37,383 nt of DNA from a virus. Lineage: Duplodnaviria > Heunggongvirae > Uroviricota > Caudoviricetes. Shown piece after piece: positions 1,447-21,197 of the stretch (the stretch's first letter is position 1; each line of letters opens with the position of its first letter). The translations under genes and the position numbers were made by a program. The stretch lies in IMG/VR virus record IMGVR_UViG_2778261303_000009; one strand, 5' to 3'. The notes under the pieces are model-generated. The model was given only the letters and a program-made list of their open reading frames with translations. It was not told the origin of the DNA and did not search any database.

Positions 1447-2022
1447 TTACCTAACGTACTTAATTGTTAAACTTATAATTTTTCCAATTATTTCAACATC
1501 TTCTATCTTGCACTCGAAGGCTCTGTTTCCACCTTCAACGAAGATTCTTCTACCGGGTAAACGAGTAATGTCGCGGATTGTTATTTCGCCATCAATACTT
1601 ATTACCCATTTACCATCACGTATATCATCAAATTCCTTATCACAAATAAATTCAGAATTATTATCTGTGATTACAAAAAGATTCTTGAATGCCGACGGTA
1701 GAAATTCTCTATCGAAAATATAAAAACCGTCTTCACACAAGGCCCCATCAGATAATACATATTTAGCAACTTCCATAGTATTTGTATTACCTGAAGTTTG
1801 CTTTGAACCATGCCCGGTTGTGAGCCAATTAAGCGAGGTGCCTGTTTCAAGGGCGCACTGGATTACCCATTCTGCTGGGAATGAGTCACGCATGTAGCGT
1901 GTGGCGAGTGTACTTTTAGAGATTCCTAAATGATCGCACAACGCCTGTCGAGTCTTGAATCCATAAGCTTCTACCATGCGCTCTATGGCGCCTCGTCCGC
2001 CTTTCTCCAAATTCATGGTCAC
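1447..2022 (-). CDS. cI: CI-type immunity repressor (phage 186 CI-like)
   Basis: 191-aa ORF divergent from the apl-cII operon and directly upstream of int. N-terminal HTH-like region (AYGFKTRQALCDHLGISKSTLATRYMRDSFPAEWVIQCALETGTSLNWL) resembles 186-type CI. RBS GGAG lies upstream of the ATG at 2022. Confidence 0.8.
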   Translation of the reverse strand: MTMNLEKGGRGAIERMVEAYGFKTRQALCDHLGISKSTLATRYMRDSFPAEWVIQCALETGTSLNWLTTGHGSKQTSGNTNTMEVAKYVLSDGALCEDGFYIFDREFLPSAFKNLFVITDNNSEFICDKEFDDIRDGKWVISIDGEITIRDITRLPGRRIFVEGGNRAFECKIEDVEIIGKIISLTIKYVR

Positions 2023-3946: not shown

Positions 3947-4800
3947 GCACCATCCTGAAATGGGCGGGAAATAAAACCGCCATAATGTCCGAACTGAAAA
4001 AGCATCTTCCTGCTGGCCCGCGACTGGTTGAACCTTTCGCGGGTTCCTGTGCAGTGATGATGGAGACGGATTACCCCAGCTATCTTGTTGCGGATATTAA
4101 TCCTGATTTAATCAACCTCTATAAAAAGGTTGCTGCTGATTGTGAGGCGTTTATATCTCGTGCCAGAGCTTTATTTGAGGAAGCAAACAGGGAGGTGGCT
4201 TATTACAACATAAGGCAGGAGTTTAATTACTCCACTGAAATTACTGATTTCATGAAAGCGGTATATTTTCTGTATCTCAATCGTCATGGTTACCGTGGGT
4301 TATGTCGCTATAACAAGAGCGGGTATTTCAACATTCCCTACGGTAATTATAAAAATCCGTATTTCCCTGAAAAAGAAATTCGCGCATTTGCAGAGAAAGC
4401 CCAGCGGGCAACGTTTATCTGCGCCAGCTTTGATGAAACGCTGGCGATGTTGAAGGTGGGGGATGTGGTGTATTGCGATCCGCCTTATGACGGTACGTTT
4501 TCCGGCTATCACACTGATGGCTTCACTGAAGATGACCAGTATCACCTGGCATCCGTTCTTGAACATCGATCATCTGAAGGTCATCCGGTCATTGTTTCTA
4601 ACAGTGACACATCCCTGATTCGTTCGCTGTATCGCAATTTCACTCACCACTACATCAGGGCAAAACGCAGCATCGGCGTGTCGGCTGGCGAGAGTAAATC
4701 TGCAACAGAAATCATTGCTGTTTCCGGGGCGCGCTGCTGGGTGGGATTTGATTATTCGCGTGGCGTGGATAGTTCTGCCGTGTACGGAGTACGTGCATGA
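3943..4800 (+). CDS. dam: DNA adenine methyltransferase (Dam-like, D12-class N6-MTase)
   Basis: N-terminus [11 protein letters not shown] with FAGSCAV SAM-binding motif and catalytic DPPY motif (VYCDPPYDG). GGAGG RBS upstream; stop overlaps the A start (ATGA). Confidence 0.85.
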
Positions 4801-7208
4801 GCCATGCCGATATGAACAACTGCTGCGGCTTTAACGAGGCTGCCGCAGCGTTCTCATGGAACAGCCCGAAAAAGGCCATTAACCCTTATCTGGACCCGGC
4901 GGAAGTTGCGCCGGTTTCTGCGCTTTCAAACCTGATCACTCTGTACGCTGCCGATAACGAGCAGGAACAGTTGCGCCGCGAGGCACTGAGTGATCAGGTC
5001 TGGGAGCGTTATTTTTTTAATGAATCACGTGATCCTGTCCAGCACGAAATGGAGCAGGATAAGCTCATTAGCCGGGCAAAGCTGGCGCATGAGCAGCAGC
5101 GTTTTAATCCGGATATGGTCATTCTGGCGGACGTCAACGCCCAGCCTTCCCATATCAGCAAGCCGCTGATGCAACGTATTGAATACTTCAGCAGCCTGGG
5201 CAGGCCAAAGGCTTATTCCCGCTATTTACGTGAGACGATTAAGCCATGTCTGGAACGACTGGAGCATGTACGCGACAGCCAGCTATCTGCATCTTTTCGT
5301 TTTATGGCAAGCCATGTAGGGCTGGACGGCCTGCTGATTCTGCCTGAAATGAGTCAGGATCAGGTGAAACGCCTGTCTACCCTTGTCGCTGCGCATATGA
5401 GCATGTGCCTTGATGCAGCTTGTGGTGATTTGTATGCCACCGATGACGTTAAGCCAGAAGAAATCCGCAAGACATGGGAAAAGGTGGCAGCAGAAACCCT
5501 GCGACTGGATGTTATCCCGCCTGCGTTTGAGCAACTCCGCCGGAAAAGAAACCGCCGTAAACCCGTGCCCTATGAACTCATTCCGGGTTCGCTGGCGCGT
5601 ATGTTGTGCGCCGACTGGTGGTACCGGAAATTATGGAAGATGCGTTGCGAATGGCGGGAAGAGCAGTTGCGTGCTGTTTGCCTGGTCAGCAAAAAAGCAT
5701 CTCCCTATGTCAGCTATGAAGCCGTGATGCATAAACGTGAGCAGCGCCGTAAGTCGCTGGAGTTTTTTCGTTCTCATGAACTGGTGAACGAAGACGGCGA
5801 CACGCTGGACATGGAGGATGTGGTAAACGCCAGCAGCAGCAACCCTGCGCATCGCCGCAATGAGATGATGGCCTGTGTTAAAGGTCTGGAGCTTATCGCG
5901 GAAATGCGCGGTGACTGCGCCGTTTTCTACACCATCACCTGTCCGTCACGTTTCCATTCCACGCTAAATAACGGCAGGCCCAACCCGACCTGGACAAATG
6001 CGACAGTAAGACAAAGCAGTGATTATCTGGTCGGCATGTTTGCTGCATTTCGTAAGGCAATGCATAAAACCGGGCTGCGCTGGTATGGCGTGCGGGTGGC
6101 TGAGCCGCACCATGACGGTACTGTGCACTGGCATCTCATGTGTTTCATGCGCAAAAAAGACCGCCGCGCCATTACTGCATTGTTGCGTAAGTTTGCCATC
6201 CGTGAAGACCGCGAGGAGCTGGGCAATAACACGGGGCCACGCTTTAAGTCTGAGCTGATAAACCCGCGCAAAGGAACGCCGACAAGCTACATCGCGAAAT
6301 ACATCAGTAAGAACATTGACGGACGTGGTCTGGCTGGCGAGATCAGCAAGGAAACGGGTAAATCCCTGCGTGATAACGCCGAATACGTTAATGCCTGGGC
6401 GTCTCTGCATCGTGTTCAGCAGTTCCGCTTCTTTGGTATTCCGGGGCGTCAGGCTTACCGTGAACTTCGCTTGCTGGCTGGTCAGGCGGCAAGGCAACAG
6501 GGTGACAAAAAAGCAGGTGCGCCAGTACTGGATAACCCGCGCCTTGATGCCATTCTGGCTGCTGCTGATGCTGGCTGTTTTGCCACCTACATTATGAAGC
6601 AGGGCGGTGTACTGGTTCCCCGTAAATATCACCTCATCAGAACCGCTTATGAAATCAACGAAGAGCCGACCGCCTATGGCGATCACGGTATTCGTATTTA
6701 TGGCATCTGGTCACCCATTGCAGAGGGCAAGATCTGCACTCATGCGGTGAAGTGGAAAATGGTTCGTAAGGCCGTTGACGTTCAGGAGGCGGCAGCCGAC
6801 CAGGGCGCTTGCGCCCCTTGGACTCGTGGCAATAACTGTCCCCTTGCTGAAAATTTGAACCAACAGGAGAAAGATAAATCAGCTGATGGGGACACCAGAA
6901 CGGACATTACCCGCATGGATGACAAGGAGTTGCACGATTACCTGCACAGTATGAGCAAAAAAGAGCGCCGGGAACTGGCTGCAAGGTTACGTCAGGTGAA
7001 ACCGAAACGGCGTAAAGACTACAAACAGCGAATTACAGACCATCAGCGACAGCAGCTCGTCTATGAACTGAAGTCCAGGGGATTTGATGGCAGCGAGAAA
7101 GAAGTCGATTTGCTCCTTCGCGGTGGCAGTATTCCGTCAGGAGCAGGCCTGCGTATCTTCTATCGGAACCAGCGTTTGCAGGAAGATGATAAGTGGCGAA
7201 ACCTGTAG
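4797..7208 (+). CDS. A: Replication initiation endonuclease (P2 gpA / rolling-circle Rep family)
   Basis: 803-aa ORF with an HUH-like motif (TVHWHLMCF) and a double-tyrosine active-site motif ([10 protein letters not shown]) characteristic of P2 A-type replication proteins. Confidence 0.9.
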
Positions 7209-7303
7209 TGATTACGCTGGTTAACAATTTCTGCTCTTAATAATACCAGGCCTATCAGGCTGATGAACGTAAAAAAACGTTTTACATCAGTAAGATTATT
7301 ATA

Positions 7304-7323
7304 TACTGTAAATATAAACAGTG
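7304..7323 (+). promoter_or_regulatory. LexA (SOS) box TACTGTAAATATAAACAGTG
   Basis: Perfect CTGT-N8-ACAG palindrome with AT-rich centre, about 40 bp upstream of a strong RBS (AGGAGG 7355..7360) and the ATG at 7365. Confidence 0.6.
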
Positions 7324-7364
7324 GTTATGTATACAGTATTGCTTGTAGTGTCATAGGAGGAAAG

Positions 7365-7553
7365 ATGCAGGACTATTTTTTGGAGTCTTTGAAGCTCCAG
7401 CGCATTGATTTTTTTCTTAAGCTTGTAGCGGCCAGTGAGTGTAGTGATGAAGAGAAGAGACTGGCTATCCAGTGGGTTTCTGAGCTGACTGACGAGTTGA
7501 TGGCGAAAATTCGTAACTATGAATACAGCCGTACAATGGACGCTACCAGCTAG
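7365..7553 (+). CDS. SOS-regulated small protein (possible Tum-like antirepressor N-terminal part)
   Basis: 62-aa ORF, ATG at 7365 behind an AGGAGG RBS and the LexA box. Position after gene A corresponds to the LexA-controlled tum region of phage 186. Upstream in-frame extension to 7263 lacks an RBS. Confidence 0.5.
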   Translation: MQDYFLESLKLQRIDFFLKLVAASECSDEEKRLAIQWVSELTDELMAKIRNYEYSRTMDATS

Positions 7554-7563
7554 GGGAAAACCT

Positions 7564-7793
7564 ATGCGCATTGAAACAATGATCGATAAAGAGCAGTAAA
7601 TTAGCCAGGCGCTGTTAGAAGCCGTTGAATCCGAGCTTTACCGCAACCTGCAGCCTATCTATCCAAAGACAGCAATCCGCATTCGTAAAGGTTCGGCAAA
7701 CGGCGTTGAGCTGAGCGGCTTAAAACTTGATGAAGACAAAAGCGAGTGATGGAAATCATGCAGCATGTTTGGGAAGATGAGAGCTGGTTTTAA
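7564..7793 (+). pseudogene. DinI-family gene disrupted by an in-frame stop and a frameshift
   Basis: MRIETMIDKEQ then TAA at 7597..7599; the same frame continues ISQALLEAVESELYRNLQPIYPKTAIRIRKGSANGVELSGLKLDEDKSE to a stop at 7747. A shifted frame (7749..7793) encodes MEIMQHVWEDESWF, matching the DinI C-terminus (ETWESADDWF). Confidence 0.55.
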
Positions 7794-7816: not shown

Positions 7817-7842
7817 AACCTCATGCAGTATCGCATGAGGTT
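7817..7842 (+). terminator. Hairpin (10-bp stem aacctcatgc / gcatgaggtt, 6-nt loop) downstream of the tum/dinI-like region
   Basis: Perfect inverted repeat followed by a weak T-rich stretch (cattt); marks the boundary before the AT-rich cargo region. Confidence 0.3.
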
Positions 7843-8010
7843 CATTTAGGCGAAATTTGTGGGAATTTTCTACAAGTTTATGAGCGAATAATTCATTTTT
7901 GATGTGTTAATTTCTTAACAATTTTGGCTTTAATTCTTGTAAAGCAAGACATAACGTTTATGATTGATAAATATAAAAAAATCTGAATAGGCAGGAAAGG
8001 AGTTTAACTC

Positions 8011-8526
8011 ATGCCTGGGTTAGAAAATGCACAGCAAAATCAAGTTGATGAAATCGTTCCAGCAATGCAAATCGCATTGGTCGAAGAAGATATAGAACAA
8101 CCCATCGCTGCCGAATACCTATACAGCCAGCATATAAGTGCGCTTGTGCCACAATGCCCTCCTGCCGAAGCGACAGAGTGCGATAGAGAATGCTGGCGTT
8201 TTACACTGAATCCTATAAGTCACAACTGCTTTTGGCCTCCAAAAAGAAGATCACCGCAGCGAATTGCTTCCGACGATGCGGAGGAGTGTTCTATGTGGGC
8301 GTTGTCTATGTATGAATCAGAGGCCCAGGCTACAAGAGCCTATACCATGTTAGCGAAGAAGATGAAAAATATCAGAAAAGCTATTGGTGATCACCTTGCT
8401 GTGGGTTCAGTAACCTGTAGTGATGGTAAATGTATGCCTGCTAGCAGAACCGGTCACTTTGATTTTCATCCTTATGTGGATGCGGATTTCGTTAACGGGT
8501 TCCAAGTAATACGAGCATTACCATGA
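8011..8526 (+). CDS. Cargo protein 1 (171 aa, no recognised domain)
   Basis: ATG at 8011 behind an AAGGAG RBS, after an AT-rich promoter-like spacer. First gene of a co-directional three-gene block; stop overlaps the next start (ATGA). Confidence 0.6.
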   Translation: MPGLENAQQNQVDEIVPAMQIALVEEDIEQPIAAEYLYSQHISALVPQCPPAEATECDRECWRFTLNPISHNCFWPPKRRSPQRIASDDAEECSMWALSMYESEAQATRAYTMLAKKMKNIRKAIGDHLAVGSVTCSDGKCMPASRTGHFDFHPYVDADFVNGFQVIRALP

Positions 8527-9614
8527 TAAAATTAGATGCTAGAAGAATAAATGCGTCAACTGTCGGAGATTATTCTTGGTACTCTGACCTCGTATATTTC
8601 GATGGTCCCCTAATTTGCTTGTTTAGAGGAAGCGGATATAAAGATGCTCTTTATGTCTGGCTCGATAATTCGGAGCGTGCCAATCGTTGGTGCTTGATTC
8701 CAGTATCAAGATCTACTTTGGACTCTTATCTTAACCAAAGAATGAGTTTAAGGGAGATTATACAATCGAGCGAATATACATATATCTGCGATCATTTTGC
8801 GGAAACAGGAAGGAAGCACTACAACATTTTGCACGTTGATAGTTTTCCTGAGGAGTATATGCCTGATGAAGATTCATATTTGTATGAAGAAATATGTACT
8901 GATGATGCATTGCTGTTGAAGCAGGAGCGCACCTCCAGTTATATGCTTGGATTAGATAATCAGTTGTTTATAAATGATTTATCTGTAATACCAAAAATTT
9001 TCGAACAGCTCTATTCTTTCCATTACGGATTGGCTCATTTAGGACGGTTGTCGATTAGAAATACCATGTTGCGTCTGATGGGGAATTGGACGGGTGGAAT
9101 ATCAGCAGTAAATATATTTTCAGGGTTGAAAAATGTTATTCCTGTTTTGCATCGACCAGAGATTAGCTCTCTCCAATACAATTCACCGGGGCATATTGAG
9201 TTAAATTTACTTCCTGATTTGGCTCAAAGTGTTCAAGATGCATCTATTCGTGTGAAAAGTGAGCTAGTTTATGACCGTCTGGAGAAAATGTATAAAAATA
9301 CATATGCATACTTCAAGGATAATGGGCTGTCAGGCTTTGATGAAGACGGCGGCATTGAAATTAGAAATATCGATAGTGATACCACCGAAAACCTACGTAA
9401 ACGCGTAAGAATATTTTTTAGATGTTTGGGGTGGTCAAGTTATCAAGCTCAGTTTGATCTGATCGGTGCCCATCCTCTACAACAATTACGTGCTGTGATG
9501 GCCTACTACAGGCGGCTCAAAATCTTGCGTGAATACATTGTCTCCGAGAAGCTTTTTGTTGGTCAGTCTCGGCTGTTACAGCAGCCACAAATTGCTCTGC
9601 CTCCTGAGGATTAG
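8523..9614 (+). CDS. Cargo protein 2 (363 aa, no recognised domain)
   Basis: Translationally coupled to protein 1. AT-rich codon usage unlike the flanking phage genes. Confidence 0.65.
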   Translation: MIKLDARRINASTVGDYSWYSDLVYFDGPLICLFRGSGYKDALYVWLDNSERANRWCLIPVSRSTLDSYLNQRMSLREIIQSSEYTYICDHFAETGRKHYNILHVDSFPEEYMPDEDSYLYEEICTDDALLLKQERTSSYMLGLDNQLFINDLSVIPKIFEQLYSFHYGLAHLGRLSIRNTMLRLMGNWTGGISAVNIFSGLKNVIPVLHRPEISSLQYNSPGHIELNLLPDLAQSVQDASIRVKSELVYDRLEKMYKNTYAYFKDNGLSGFDEDGGIEIRNIDSDTTENLRKRVRIFFRCLGWSSYQAQFDLIGAHPLQQLRAVMAYYRRLKILREYIVSEKLFVGQSRLLQQPQIALPPED

Positions 9615-9631: not shown

Positions 9632-10972
9632 ATGAATCCGCATGATCGTTTGAGGATCGTTCTAGATGAGGCCCGCCAGCAATGGCGGGCTTTTGCTAAT
9701 GTCATGCTGGCGCATGAAAACCGCTACATAAAGTGGGCAGGCGTGGCGGGGATACGATTGCGCGCTTATTCCAAAACGGCAATAATTAACTTTTCAAAAC
9801 ATCTACCAGGAAAGACAATGCTTATCTGCGAAGACCATATCGTCGAACCAAACGTAAAAAATCATGTTCGTCTGCAAACTGACAACAACATTTGTGTGTT
9901 TTGTAATGCTGTTACAAAATGCCTAGATACTGATTCGATAGAAGCTCGAAATTTGCTAAAAGCAATCTTACGTTATAACTTTGATGAAGTTCTCTATAAT
10001 ACACATATTGGTGGTGACTATTTCCCAGGTTTTTTATTAGCAGATGATTATATATTTTGCAGGGATATCCAAAGTTACGCTGAAGCATTTACTGATCTTG
10101 ATAGTGAAATATGGAGTATGGGGTTCACAACTGCAGGTGAGATTGATATACATTCAGGACATGATCAAGATGGCATGATGAATATGCCGCTTATGTCAAT
10201 TATTAACTCATATCATCCATTTATAGGAAAATTATCTAAGAAACTTGCTGAAGTAAATTACCATGAGTTTGAAGATGAATTGAGGGATATCATTAAAGAT
10301 TATGGGAATTCTTTTGCCAAAATAATTGAGGGTGGTTCTGTAGTTTATCGTGCTCGCGTAGGGACTGCTGGTTATAAAAAAGCTCATGAAGATTTTAACT
10401 ATGAAGGGAAGAAAATATTCGTTCCATACAAAAATAAAGAAATAGGTTCTGTTCCTCCTCTTAAAGCAACGGCAGGTAGAGCTAATAGAGTCGGGGTTTC
10501 ATACTTATATTGCGCGACTGATAGCTATACAGCGATCGCTGAGGTGAGACCTCATCCTACAGATGTAGTTTCTTTAGGTAAATTTAGCGTATCGCGAGCT
10601 TTAAAAGTATTCGATTTTTCATATCCAAACTTATTAGACTTTATCGAAAATGGCGATACTTTATTGAGAATGATTCCTTACGCTAAAATGGCGGGTATTT
10701 ATAATACCGCTACACCCCCCTCTTTGGAAGGAAGGTATAGTGTTTCGCAGCTCATATCTGACTGCATAAGAAAGGAAGGATACGATGGCATACAGTTTTC
10801 AAGCACTGTTGGTGAAGGGAAAAATTTAGTTGTGTTTAATCCTAGTTACATGGAATTTATTGAGGGGAGTTCAACGGTAATTGAAATTGACAAGGTACAA
10901 TATACATACAAAGAAAAACAAGTAGTAGGGATGAATGATCAGTGGGAGATTTATTATAATGAAGTTGAATAG
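9632..10972 (+). CDS. Cargo protein 3 (446 aa): N-terminal Cys/His-containing region plus C-terminal RES-like domain
   Basis: C-terminal half carries RES-domain-like motifs: VVYRARVG, then AGRANRVGVSYLYCATDSYTAIAEVRPH (GRxN...LYxA...AxxE), then GYDGIQFSSTVGEGKNLVVFNP (DGIxxxS...N.VVF). The start codon is uncertain because the RBS is weak. Confidence 0.65.
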   Translation: MNPHDRLRIVLDEARQQWRAFANVMLAHENRYIKWAGVAGIRLRAYSKTAIINFSKHLPGKTMLICEDHIVEPNVKNHVRLQTDNNICVFCNAVTKCLDTDSIEARNLLKAILRYNFDEVLYNTHIGGDYFPGFLLADDYIFCRDIQSYAEAFTDLDSEIWSMGFTTAGEIDIHSGHDQDGMMNMPLMSIINSYHPFIGKLSKKLAEVNYHEFEDELRDIIKDYGNSFAKIIEGGSVVYRARVGTAGYKKAHEDFNYEGKKIFVPYKNKEIGSVPPLKATAGRANRVGVSYLYCATDSYTAIAEVRPHPTDVVSLGKFSVSRALKVFDFSYPNLLDFIENGDTLLRMIPYAKMAGIYNTATPPSLEGRYSVSQLISDCIRKEGYDGIQFSSTVGEGKNLVVFNPSYMEFIEGSSTVIEIDKVQYTYKEKQVVGMNDQWEIYYNEVE

Positions 10973-19442: not shown

Positions 19443-21197
19443 TCAATCCCAAAATAAATTATTATTAATATTGCTCATATCGAAAGTGAAGTTCTTTTCT
19501 GTAATAGTTTCGTACCTTTGTTCATAGATTATTTTTACATATCTAAACCCCTGTGTTACAGAGCGAATTTTTCGGGGTTTTGATGCAAGCATAACAAGTA
19601 TTTCAAATACTTTATCAAGATAGTTGTGGGTGTGTTCAACTAAAAGGGGGGTAAATTTACCACCTTTTCCAGAATGGACTATGTTATTTCTTGTTCTATA
19701 AATTCTTCTGAGTTGCCATTCTAATCTTAACTTATGGTTATCTAAAGTTGATTTAATTGACTCCGGGGATGAAACTATGTTTTTTATATACTCGAAACGA
19801 TCTGAAAGCAATGTGTAATCACGAAATTTAGCGGATAAAGATTCCCTTACTGATTCGTATTCAGGAAGAATCATTATATTGGCTAGTTTGTGTTTCGCTT
19901 TTGCTCCAGGTATTCCTTTTAAATGTGAGTTTAGCATGTGCCTATTCCATAACAGCAGGTCTCGAGTAAGGTTGTCAATTAAGGAGTCTATATATGTAAT
20001 ATTCAGGAATGGAATTATACTTGCAGTAATATGTTCTATTGTTGCTTGATCCTTGGATTTAGTGTCTGTCGGCACTAATGATTCAAGAGCTATCCATAGA
20101 TTTAAAAGCTGATTTTCAACATTTTCACTTTTTAATGCCATTGAATGTAATTGAATACTTCTCAAGAACTTGGCAAATGAACTATTTTCTAGAGAAAACT
20201 CAGACATCAATGATTCAAGACGTTTCTTGGCCTTTTCATGCTTTAAGTCCTTGCATTTTTTCATGGGGTTAAGTCTTTCAGCCACTTTCAAAGAGTCTGT
20301 ATCAGTTATAACGAAAGCTTCATTTGACCAAGTAGGTTTATCTTTATGATGATAAATATTTAAAAAGGATGATGCTAATTTAAGTAGGTTTTCAGCATTC
20401 TCTCTTGCTGAATAAGAATCAAAAGCTTCTATATTTGATACGCAAACTATCTTCTTTCTTTGCAGATTTCTAAAAAAAACATGTTGGGAAAATTCTTCTG
20501 GTGGTTCTTTCTCAACAGACAAAGAGAGTCTTTCGAAAGTTGGCTCGGCGCCTAAAAACACTGGTTCAACAATAAAATATATTTTGTATTTCTTTTTTTC
20601 GAGTTTTATTAAATCAAAAAAAGAAGAGACATCAGTGTTATTTGAGATTTTATTATTCCCATAATAAAAAAATTGCTGGGTTAAATTCTTAAGATTATGT
20701 TGGCTAAAGCCAATGTAGAGTAATAAGCTGATATAATTTCTTGTTAGCTTGCGTATGATGCTTCTTTCCCAGTTTGGGGATGATAACTCTTGGGTGATAA
20801 GTTCTTCACTTTTTTCTTTATATAATTTGGGTGGTAATTGAATGACCAGCATTTCAATTATTGAGCTTCTCTCTTTAGGGCTTATGTTAGTATTTTTTAG
20901 TTTGTTGAGAAAAGCTTGGTAAGCATCGCCTAATAAATGTTGTGCTACTTTATCACATGACAAGTTATGTATTAATTCTGCGGTTAAATGTTCAATATTT
21001 TTAGGCTGAATAATACCATCCTCAACATCTTTAATTGTATTTAAAGTTTCTATTCCAATTGTTGGGGTATTCATCACTGAGGGTTTGTATGTGTCCAGTG
21101 TATAGTCAAATAGCATTTCATCCAGTAATTGCGCAAAATATACTAGTGCTTTACAAGTGTCTGGGCAATCCCATTTATACAAAGAACGAAATTTCAT
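19443..21197 (-). CDS. Cargo protein (584 aa) with C-terminal HEPN-type RNxxxH motif; candidate abortive-infection RNase
   Basis: Very AT-rich ORF antisense to the late operon, between S and V. Near the C-terminus, LEWQLRRIYRTRNNIVHSGKGG contains RNNIVH (R-N-x3-H), encoded at 19674..19691. Confidence 0.65.
   Translation of the reverse strand: MKFRSLYKWDCPDTCKALVYFAQLLDEMLFDYTLDTYKPSVMNTPTIGIETLNTIKDVEDGIIQPKNIEHLTAELIHNLSCDKVAQHLLGDAYQAFLNKLKNTNISPKERSSIIEMLVIQLPPKLYKEKSEELITQELSSPNWERSIIRKLTRNYISLLLYIGFSQHNLKNLTQQFFYYGNNKISNNTDVSSFFDLIKLEKKKYKIYFIVEPVFLGAEPTFERLSLSVEKEPPEEFSQHVFFRNLQRKKIVCVSNIEAFDSYSARENAENLLKLASSFLNIYHHKDKPTWSNEAFVITDTDSLKVAERLNPMKKCKDLKHEKAKKRLESLMSEFSLENSSFAKFLRSIQLHSMALKSENVENQLLNLWIALESLVPTDTKSKDQATIEHITASIIPFLNITYIDSLIDNLTRDLLLWNRHMLNSHLKGIPGAKAKHKLANIMILPEYESVRESLSAKFRDYTLLSDRFEYIKNIVSSPESIKSTLDNHKLRLEWQLRRIYRTRNNIVHSGKGGKFTPLLVEHTHNYLDKVFEILVMLASKPRKIRSVTQGFRYVKIIYEQRYETITEKNFTFDMSNINNNLFWD

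Follow-up and report, generated by a model that had tools for sequence, protein, structure and literature searches.

A tumB (dinI-like) pseudogene adjoins an intact tumA-like gene in the predicted SOS operon of a P2-family Escherichia coli prophage

Results

The window analyzed here is the whole 37,383-nucleotide stretch of viral DNA in IMG/VR record IMGVR_UViG_2778261303_000009. Its right flank is the E. coli ybjL-ybjM-grxA region, and the element is assigned to the P2-family E. coli prophages of the 186/Fels-2/PSP3 type. Just past replication gene A lies what would be a small SOS operon, made up of a LexA-overlapped promoter, a 62-aa tumA-like gene and a 76-aa tumB; the last of these is broken at two points (Table 1).

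Table 1. Coordinates of the immunity repressor, gene A and the features of the predicted SOS operon in the window
Feature	Position	Strand	Details	Basis
186-type CI immunity repressor	1447..2022	-	191 aa; presumed antirepressor target	Pfam, identity to 186 CI
Replication gene A	4797-7208		Dam methylase also in prophage	
Putative SOS promoter	7281..7309	+	-35 TTTACA 7281-7286, 17-nt spacer, -10 TACTGT 7304-7309	Read by eye
Predicted LexA box	7304..7323	+	TACTGTAAATATAAACAGTG; core CTGT-N8-ACAG 7306-7321	Motif search, alignment
tumA-like gene, intact	7365..7553	+	62 aa; RBS AGGAGG 7355-7360	Homology to Fels-2/SopEPhi/SEN8 genes, PHROG profiles
tumB/dinI-like pseudogene	7564..7793	+		Repaired-protein DinI score, identity to intact alleles, RefSeq annotation of near-identical prophages
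Nonsense codon	7597..7599	+	TAA for Lys12	Alignments to intact alleles; codon check, 11 loci
1-nt deletion site	7738..7741	+	A4 then G	Alignments to intact alleles; A-run count
10-bp perfect hairpin	7817..7842	+	3' of pseudogene	Folding; centroid structure is the hairpin alone

The first-pass annotation of this DNA had claimed a DinI-like gene with one nonsense codon and one frameshift, and translation recovered all three of the frame pieces that such a gene would leave. The frame opens at ATG 7564-7566 and encodes MRIETMIDKEQ before it meets the TAA. Past this codon the same frame continues as ISQALLEAVESELYRNLQPIYPKTAIRIRKGSANGVELSGLKLDEDKSE (beginning ISQALLEAV and ending LDEDKSE) up to a TGA at 7747-7749. 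The third piece lies in the -1 (= +2) frame, where an ATG at 7749-7751 leads into MEIMQHVWEDESWF and a stop, TAA, at 7791-7793.

Membership in the DinI family was assessed on a repaired protein of 76 aa, in which codon 12 was taken as Lys and the missing base was put back. The repaired protein scored 76.9 bits (E 1.5e-21) against Pfam DinI (PF06183), for which the cut-off is 24.2 bits, matched phrog_189 at 7.7e-28, and aligned end to end with the solved structure of E. coli DinI, 1GHH (E 1.2e-7). It is 84% identical to PSP3 TumB and 91-93% identical to the intact alleles P0121, P0132 and P0155. Its 41% identity to residues 71-145 of 186 Tum agrees with the literature (PMC3121763) and with the first-pass annotation, in which 186 Tum carries a DinI-like C-terminal part. 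Since the unrepaired 49-aa middle piece alone already reaches 46.5 bits (E 4.6e-12) against PF06183, a chance resemblance is ruled out, and the likeness of 7564-7793 to DinI is far beyond chance. An intact 76-aa allele, 91% identical to the repaired protein and also ending in ESWF, is carried by a metagenomic contig (L018) in a module of a 62-aa gene, the dinI-like gene, a 171-aa gene and a 363-aa gene, which is the same tumA-tumB-PD-T4-10 module as that of the window.

Alignment to DinI and to intact homologs, which had been proposed as a check, placed the lesions at codon 12 and at the A-run of 7738-7741. Codon 12 of the dinI-like gene is AAG in Cartapus, E. coli F374, E. coli W and Fels-2, and AAA in E. 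coli CH4794 and L018; a single A-to-T change from AAA would explain the TAA of the window. At the second lesion, the window reads GACAAAAGCG against GACAAAAAGCG or GACAAAACGCG in intact genes and is one base short: after GAC, the intact alleles have AAAAAG-CG or AAAACG-CG and the window has AAAAG-CG, which puts the lost base at 7738-7742. This deletion falls after codon 59 and shifts the frame into the TGA described above, which is premature.

No ATG, GTG or TTG restart was found in frame past the TAA at 7597-7599 when the reading frame was checked. Because of the TAA at codon 12, the 1-nt deletion and the lack of such a restart, 7564-7793 reads as a pseudogene of the DinI family and not as a functional member. 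The stretch holds no uninterrupted ORF of about 76-81 codons, the length of the DinI family, and the acidic C-terminal helix with the conserved Trp, VMEIMQHVWEDESWF, is readable solely in the shifted frame and cannot be joined to the remainder. Since the original ATG would yield an 11-residue peptide only, no DinI-like protein would be made.

The upstream 62-aa gene, on the other hand, is complete. Its product is 85.5% identical to Fels-2 STM2728, 88.7% to the SopEPhi homologue and 90.3% to the SEN8 homologue, and is identical to the protein of the closest relatives of the window, WP_001568678.1. Among PHROG profiles, it matched phrog_698 (2.4e-35), phrog_8554 (8.7e-8) and phrog_1993 (0.0042); residues 1-69 of 186 Tum matched the same three families (6.4e-6, 3.2e-12 and 1.9e-23, respectively), and the matches of the two proteins cover common residues 7-44. 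PSP3 TumA is itself a member of phrog_1993. A bridging sequence was also found, the stand-alone 60-aa 'tum protein' of a Yersinia phage, which is 46% identical to residues 4-42 of 186 Tum and 32% identical to residues 11-44 of the window ORF. The relationship to Tum rests on these profiles and on the bridging sequence, because BLASTP gave no match when the 62-aa protein was compared directly with 186 Tum and with PSP3 TumA, and hhalign of a shallow seven-sequence alignment against 186 Tum was weak (19% probability, E 0.0012). A remote homology between the 62-aa protein and the antirepressor half of 186 Tum is supported by this evidence, and the window would in this way hold, as its antirepressor part, a homologue of TumA or of the N-terminal half of Tum. 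We presume that the protein is a LexA-controlled antirepressor, on the strength of this homology and of a personal communication that published work cites for PSP3.

Public gene calls of 96 aa at this locus (P0001-P0004) begin at ATG 7263, upstream of the LexA box and the promoter, and span 7263-7553. We regard this start as an over-extended call; RefSeq and the phage records annotate the 62-aa form with the AGGAGG RBS.

The LexA box that precedes the 62-aa gene bears out the earlier placement of the DinI-like gene directly downstream of an SOS-regulated ORF. The motif CTGT-N8-ACAG occurs once in the 37-kb window, the box is identical in every relative aligned, Fels-2 included, and its position agrees with that of the 186 LexA site; LexA binding itself is a prediction. 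Box and promoter both sit downstream of gene A, which is the location of a 186-type Tum operon. The promoter sequence is likewise conserved in the aligned relatives, and its layout mirrors that of the 186 p95 promoter (TTCACA-18 nt-TACTGT), in which the -10 element is the first half of the LexA site. A consensus promoter scanner made no call at 7281-7309 since the -10 element matches merely 3 of 6 consensus positions. By analogy with p95, we infer that this site functions as a promoter.

At the 3' side of the pseudogene, the 81-nt segment 7790-7870, which contains the hairpin, has an MFE z-score of -2.66 as a whole, a value that does not describe the hairpin alone. The hairpin has no proper U-run, and a terminator scanner made no call at 7817-7842. 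It may be a weak or partial terminator of the SOS transcript, like t95a of 186. If so, it would let some SOS-driven read-through reach the defence cargo that follows. This cargo, which sits between the SOS operon and the portal gene, consists of a PD-T4-10 A/B anti-phage defence pair directly after the pseudogene (8011-8526 and 8523-9614; PADLOC 9.8e-76 and 1.3e-172) and, after the pair, a 446-aa RES-domain protein (9632-10972; Pfam 2.9e-18). The scanner placed a separate promoter-like site at 7937-7964. The cargo at this position differs in relatives and includes AIPR, GmrSD and RelA_SpoT-domain genes. Elsewhere in the prophage, a 584-aa ORF on the opposite strand within the late-gene region (19443-21197, -) gave a weak ApeA-like PADLOC match (1.2e-12) and matched nothing in Pfam or PHROG; possibly, this is a further defence moron.

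The immunity repressor is the presumed target of the 62-aa protein. Its neighbours are the integrase, an Apl/Cox-like gene and a CII-like gene, and it is 33% identical to 186 CI over 175 aa (E 6e-39). Its Pfam matches were Phage_CI_repr (PF07022, 114.5 bits) and Phage_CI_C (PF16452, 92 bits), with no others; in particular, no S24 peptidase (autocleavage) domain was detected by Pfam in the 191 aa. The window thus contains the cognate-type CI, without a detected autocleavage domain, that belongs with a Tum operon. Across Fels-2, SopEPhi, SEN8, Cartapus and many Klebsiella phages, the TumA-like protein keeps 85-90% identity, and, among the matches listed, which do not include SopEPhi, the CI proteins of Fels-2, SEN8, Cartapus and the Klebsiella phages are about 40-52% identical to that of the window. 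The presumed target is far less conserved than the presumed antirepressor, and one may ask whether antirepressor action crosses immunity groups. In what follows, a cognate TumA-CI pairing in the window is assumed.

In 186, Tum proper is one polypeptide with an antirepressor part and a DinI-like part. No such single polypeptide is encoded in the window: the tumA-like gene ends at TAG 7551-7553 and is followed, after 10 nt, by a separate ATG with its own RBS for the dinI-like gene. The same layout (a 62-aa gene, a stop, about 10 nt and a 76-77-aa gene) is found intact in PSP3, Fels-2, Cartapus, F374, W and L018. In the PSP3 record, tumA is annotated as 'similar to 5' end 186 tum; UV induction of prophage' and tumB as 'similar to dinI and 3' end of 186 tum'. 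The gene that follows STM2728 in Fels-2 encodes a DinI-family protein of 77 aa, for which a similarity to PSP3 TumB is noted. Since the layout is intact in these six and extends to more than a thousand E. coli prophages, a separation of the two ORFs is normal for the phage group and does not reflect the decay of a fused gene. The DinI-like part of the Tum/TumA-TumB operon is present in the window as a pseudogene, and it is the DinI-like gene alone that has decayed. Other arrangements also occur. In E. coli CH4794 (L011), an ISVsa5 insertion splits the tumA-like gene and dinI is intact; in E. coli 1283 (L010), the tumA-like gene is followed by unrelated cargo without dinI; and in Yersinia phage vB_YenM_06.16-2 and ESSI2-like phages (L007 and L008), the tumA-like gene is present without an adjacent dinI.

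How far the broken allele extends was examined by a scripted, base-by-base check of the lesions at 11 loci carrying the dinI-like gene. Both the TAA at codon 12 and the four-A run were found in six independently sequenced E. coli chromosomes, namely 13C1079T (Hong Kong, chicken), EC20-4B-2 (Viet Nam, fish gut), HN257 and ECN24 (both China, chicken), DG341-1 (Germany, chicken) and 200088 (Mali, human). The tumB of the window is a true, inherited pseudogene and not an artefact. It is also of an already known kind, as RefSeq flags the locus in these near-identical prophages: in all six carriers it is a pseudogene, 'DinI-like family protein', 'frameshifted', and in two of the six additionally 'internal stop'. 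A 601-nt segment of the operon matches 1,104 of 5,426 complete E. coli genomes; product names cannot tally the pseudogenes among these roughly 1,100 matches, as RefSeq gives intact genes the name 'DinI-like family protein' too.

Differences among the carriers fall on the two genes unequally. In the prophages of 200088 (L003) and DG341-1 (L016), codon 15 of the pseudogene has turned from CAG into TAG, a second stop in frame, and a Trp of its conserved C-terminal motif has become Cys, which indicates continuing neutral decay in this sub-lineage. The upstream 62-aa protein is the single accession WP_001568678.1 in all six. This is the pattern that would be expected of a neutral decaying pseudogene beside a constrained gene. 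The carrier prophages are mosaic, with A proteins and downstream cargo that vary between them, and the best whole-prophage match to that of the window in a search of the genome collection was 96-97% identical over 83-85% of the query. It follows that the broken allele has persisted through recombination and spread.

Discussion

The state of this operon is best described, in our view, as that of a normal split operon with an inherited tumB pseudogene, in which an intact tumA would still drive induction, and we consider this explanation as a whole very probable. The lineage of the window would have lost tumB through the A-to-T change at Lys12 and the single base loss at the A-run. The first-pass annotation had instead read the locus as a split or decaying tum, in which a 186-like fused ancestor broke up, the split and the DinI lesions being both marks of decay, with SOS induction lost or weakened. 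This possibility draws support from 186, where Tum is one protein of 146 aa, DinI-like in its C-terminal half, and the operon does decay in other strains, as the insertion in the CH4794 tumA-like gene illustrates. Such a history is nevertheless very unlikely. Separate genes of 62 and 76-77 aa are intact in PSP3, Fels-2, Cartapus, W, F374 and L018, and the upstream gene of the window is complete, with the same protein as in its closest relatives. According to PMC3121763, through which Bunny et al. 2002 is cited here, the halves of Tum are separate genes in Fels-2 and PSP3, and the antirepressor activity of PSP3 is attributed to the upstream gene. The same paper notes that the second half of 186 Tum resembles DinI, suggesting an antirepressor-DinI fusion (PMC3121763). 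Tum is not mentioned in PMC3448106, which treats the regulatory genes of P2-like phages. The two-gene layout that the earlier reading took for decay is thus the intact state of the operon, and the alternative that the same annotation offered, an N-terminal ORF acting alone, is the one favoured by the evidence.

How induction of this prophage would proceed can be proposed by analogy with 186, where induction is the SOS derepression of p95-tum (PMC7708051) and Tum binds CI and blocks its binding to the operator (PMC3121763). Binding to CI and a requirement in induction by UV or mitomycin C are known for 186 Tum and reported for PSP3 TumA (PMC3121763). DNA damage would lead to cleavage of LexA and derepression of tumA, and TumA would then inactivate CI. 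Since the promoter, the LexA box, the RBS and tumA are intact and CI lacks a detected autocleavage domain, a tumA-dependent induction is expected. SOS induction most likely runs through the intact 62-aa gene, and TumA may well suffice for it. Without tumB, induction is probably modulated and not abolished; the loss would only take away a modulatory input on RecA and the SOS response. The DinI-like Tum products are annotated in the 186 record as 'modulates SOS induction', and given this annotation, loss of tumB may have a quantitative effect. The poor SOS inducibility that had been predicted for this prophage does not follow from the lesions. Antirepressor activity is attributed to the upstream gene in PSP3, as noted above, and non-polar deletions of dinI in Gifsy-1 and Gifsy-3 left induction unchanged (PMC3121763). 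The natural relatives with a tumA and no dinI (E. coli 1283, the ESSI2-like phages and the Yersinia phage) also point to a dispensable dinI.

Residual activity of the broken gene deserves consideration. The 14-codon ORF MEIMQHVWEDESWF (7749-7793) might be a micropeptide of the SOS transcript that modulates RecA or, more modestly, the tumB-null lineage might have altered induction kinetics; we rate either as a long shot. If altered kinetics were true, the tumB-null lineage would separate the antirepressor role of Tum from its DinI role. Recoding is a related proposal, in which readthrough of the TAA together with slippage at the A-run would produce some full-length DinI-like protein, or MEIMQHVWEDESWF would be made alone. 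A -1 slip on C-AAA-AG would, we infer, restore the ancestral D-K-K-R-V-M reading exactly, and the 14 codons of the ORF include part of the acidic helix at the C-terminus, through which DinI reportedly contacts RecA (Voloshin et al. 2001). Recoding would however need two independent events. There is no X-XXY-YYZ slippery heptamer at C-AAA-AG, four A's are too few for efficient transcriptional slippage, and no good Shine-Dalgarno sequence lies ahead of ATG 7749. Intact relatives do without recoding, and two relatives have added a second in-frame stop and lost the conserved Trp, which suggests relaxed constraint, so that we hold recoding to be highly improbable. Finally, a sequencing or assembly error, raised in the first-pass annotation, by which the homopolymer deletion and the stop would be mistakes in a gene that is really intact, is scarcely credible: one lesion does fall within a short A-run, where some sequencing chemistries typically make indel errors, but the nonsense change is a substitution, six genomes assembled independently in different laboratories and countries share both lesions exactly, and a sub-lineage carries further disabling changes.

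The significance of the inherited tumB pseudogene beyond correct annotation is small. Instead of a broken tum, the label for the locus should name two genes, a tumA-like antirepressor gene that is intact and a tumB (dinI-like) pseudogene. Poultry, fish and humans on three continents have yielded E. coli whose mosaic prophages carry the tumB-null operon. Together with the dinI-less relatives, this operon supports the view, already in print, that prophage maintenance, and probably transmission too, can do without the DinI half of Tum. The tumB-null lineage is therefore a natural mutant for asking what the DinI homologues of phages do.

Comparison with known systems places the operon among relatives that share different parts of it. 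E. coli DinI (PDB 1GHH), a host SOS protein that binds the RecA filament, belongs to the same Pfam family and length class as the window protein, and both have the MRIE start and the C-terminal W-E-x-x-x-W-F motif; identity between the two is about 34%, and the window copy, unlike the host gene, is phage-borne, lies in an antirepressor operon and appears non-functional. The gfoA/gftA operons of the Gifsy phages, like that of the window, pair a small LexA-controlled antirepressor with a dinI homologue, which in Gifsy is dispensable for induction (PMC3121763). They differ in that dinI comes first, their antirepressors and repressors belong to unrelated families, and the phages themselves are lambdoid. 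The genomic position of 186 tum, its promoter and LexA-box layout and the 186-type CI/Apl/CII switch are common to the window, whereas 186 Tum is one 146-aa polypeptide with internal starts and the window has separate genes, the DinI part apparently dead. The PSP3 tumA-tumB and Fels-2 STM2728/STM2726.1 pairs match the window in their position after gene A, in gene order and in gene sizes; unlike either pair, the window carries a tumB with a nonsense codon and a 1-nt deletion. Its 62-aa protein is of the Fels-2 type (phrog_698), to which the PSP3/186 type (phrog_1993) is related at the profile level only.
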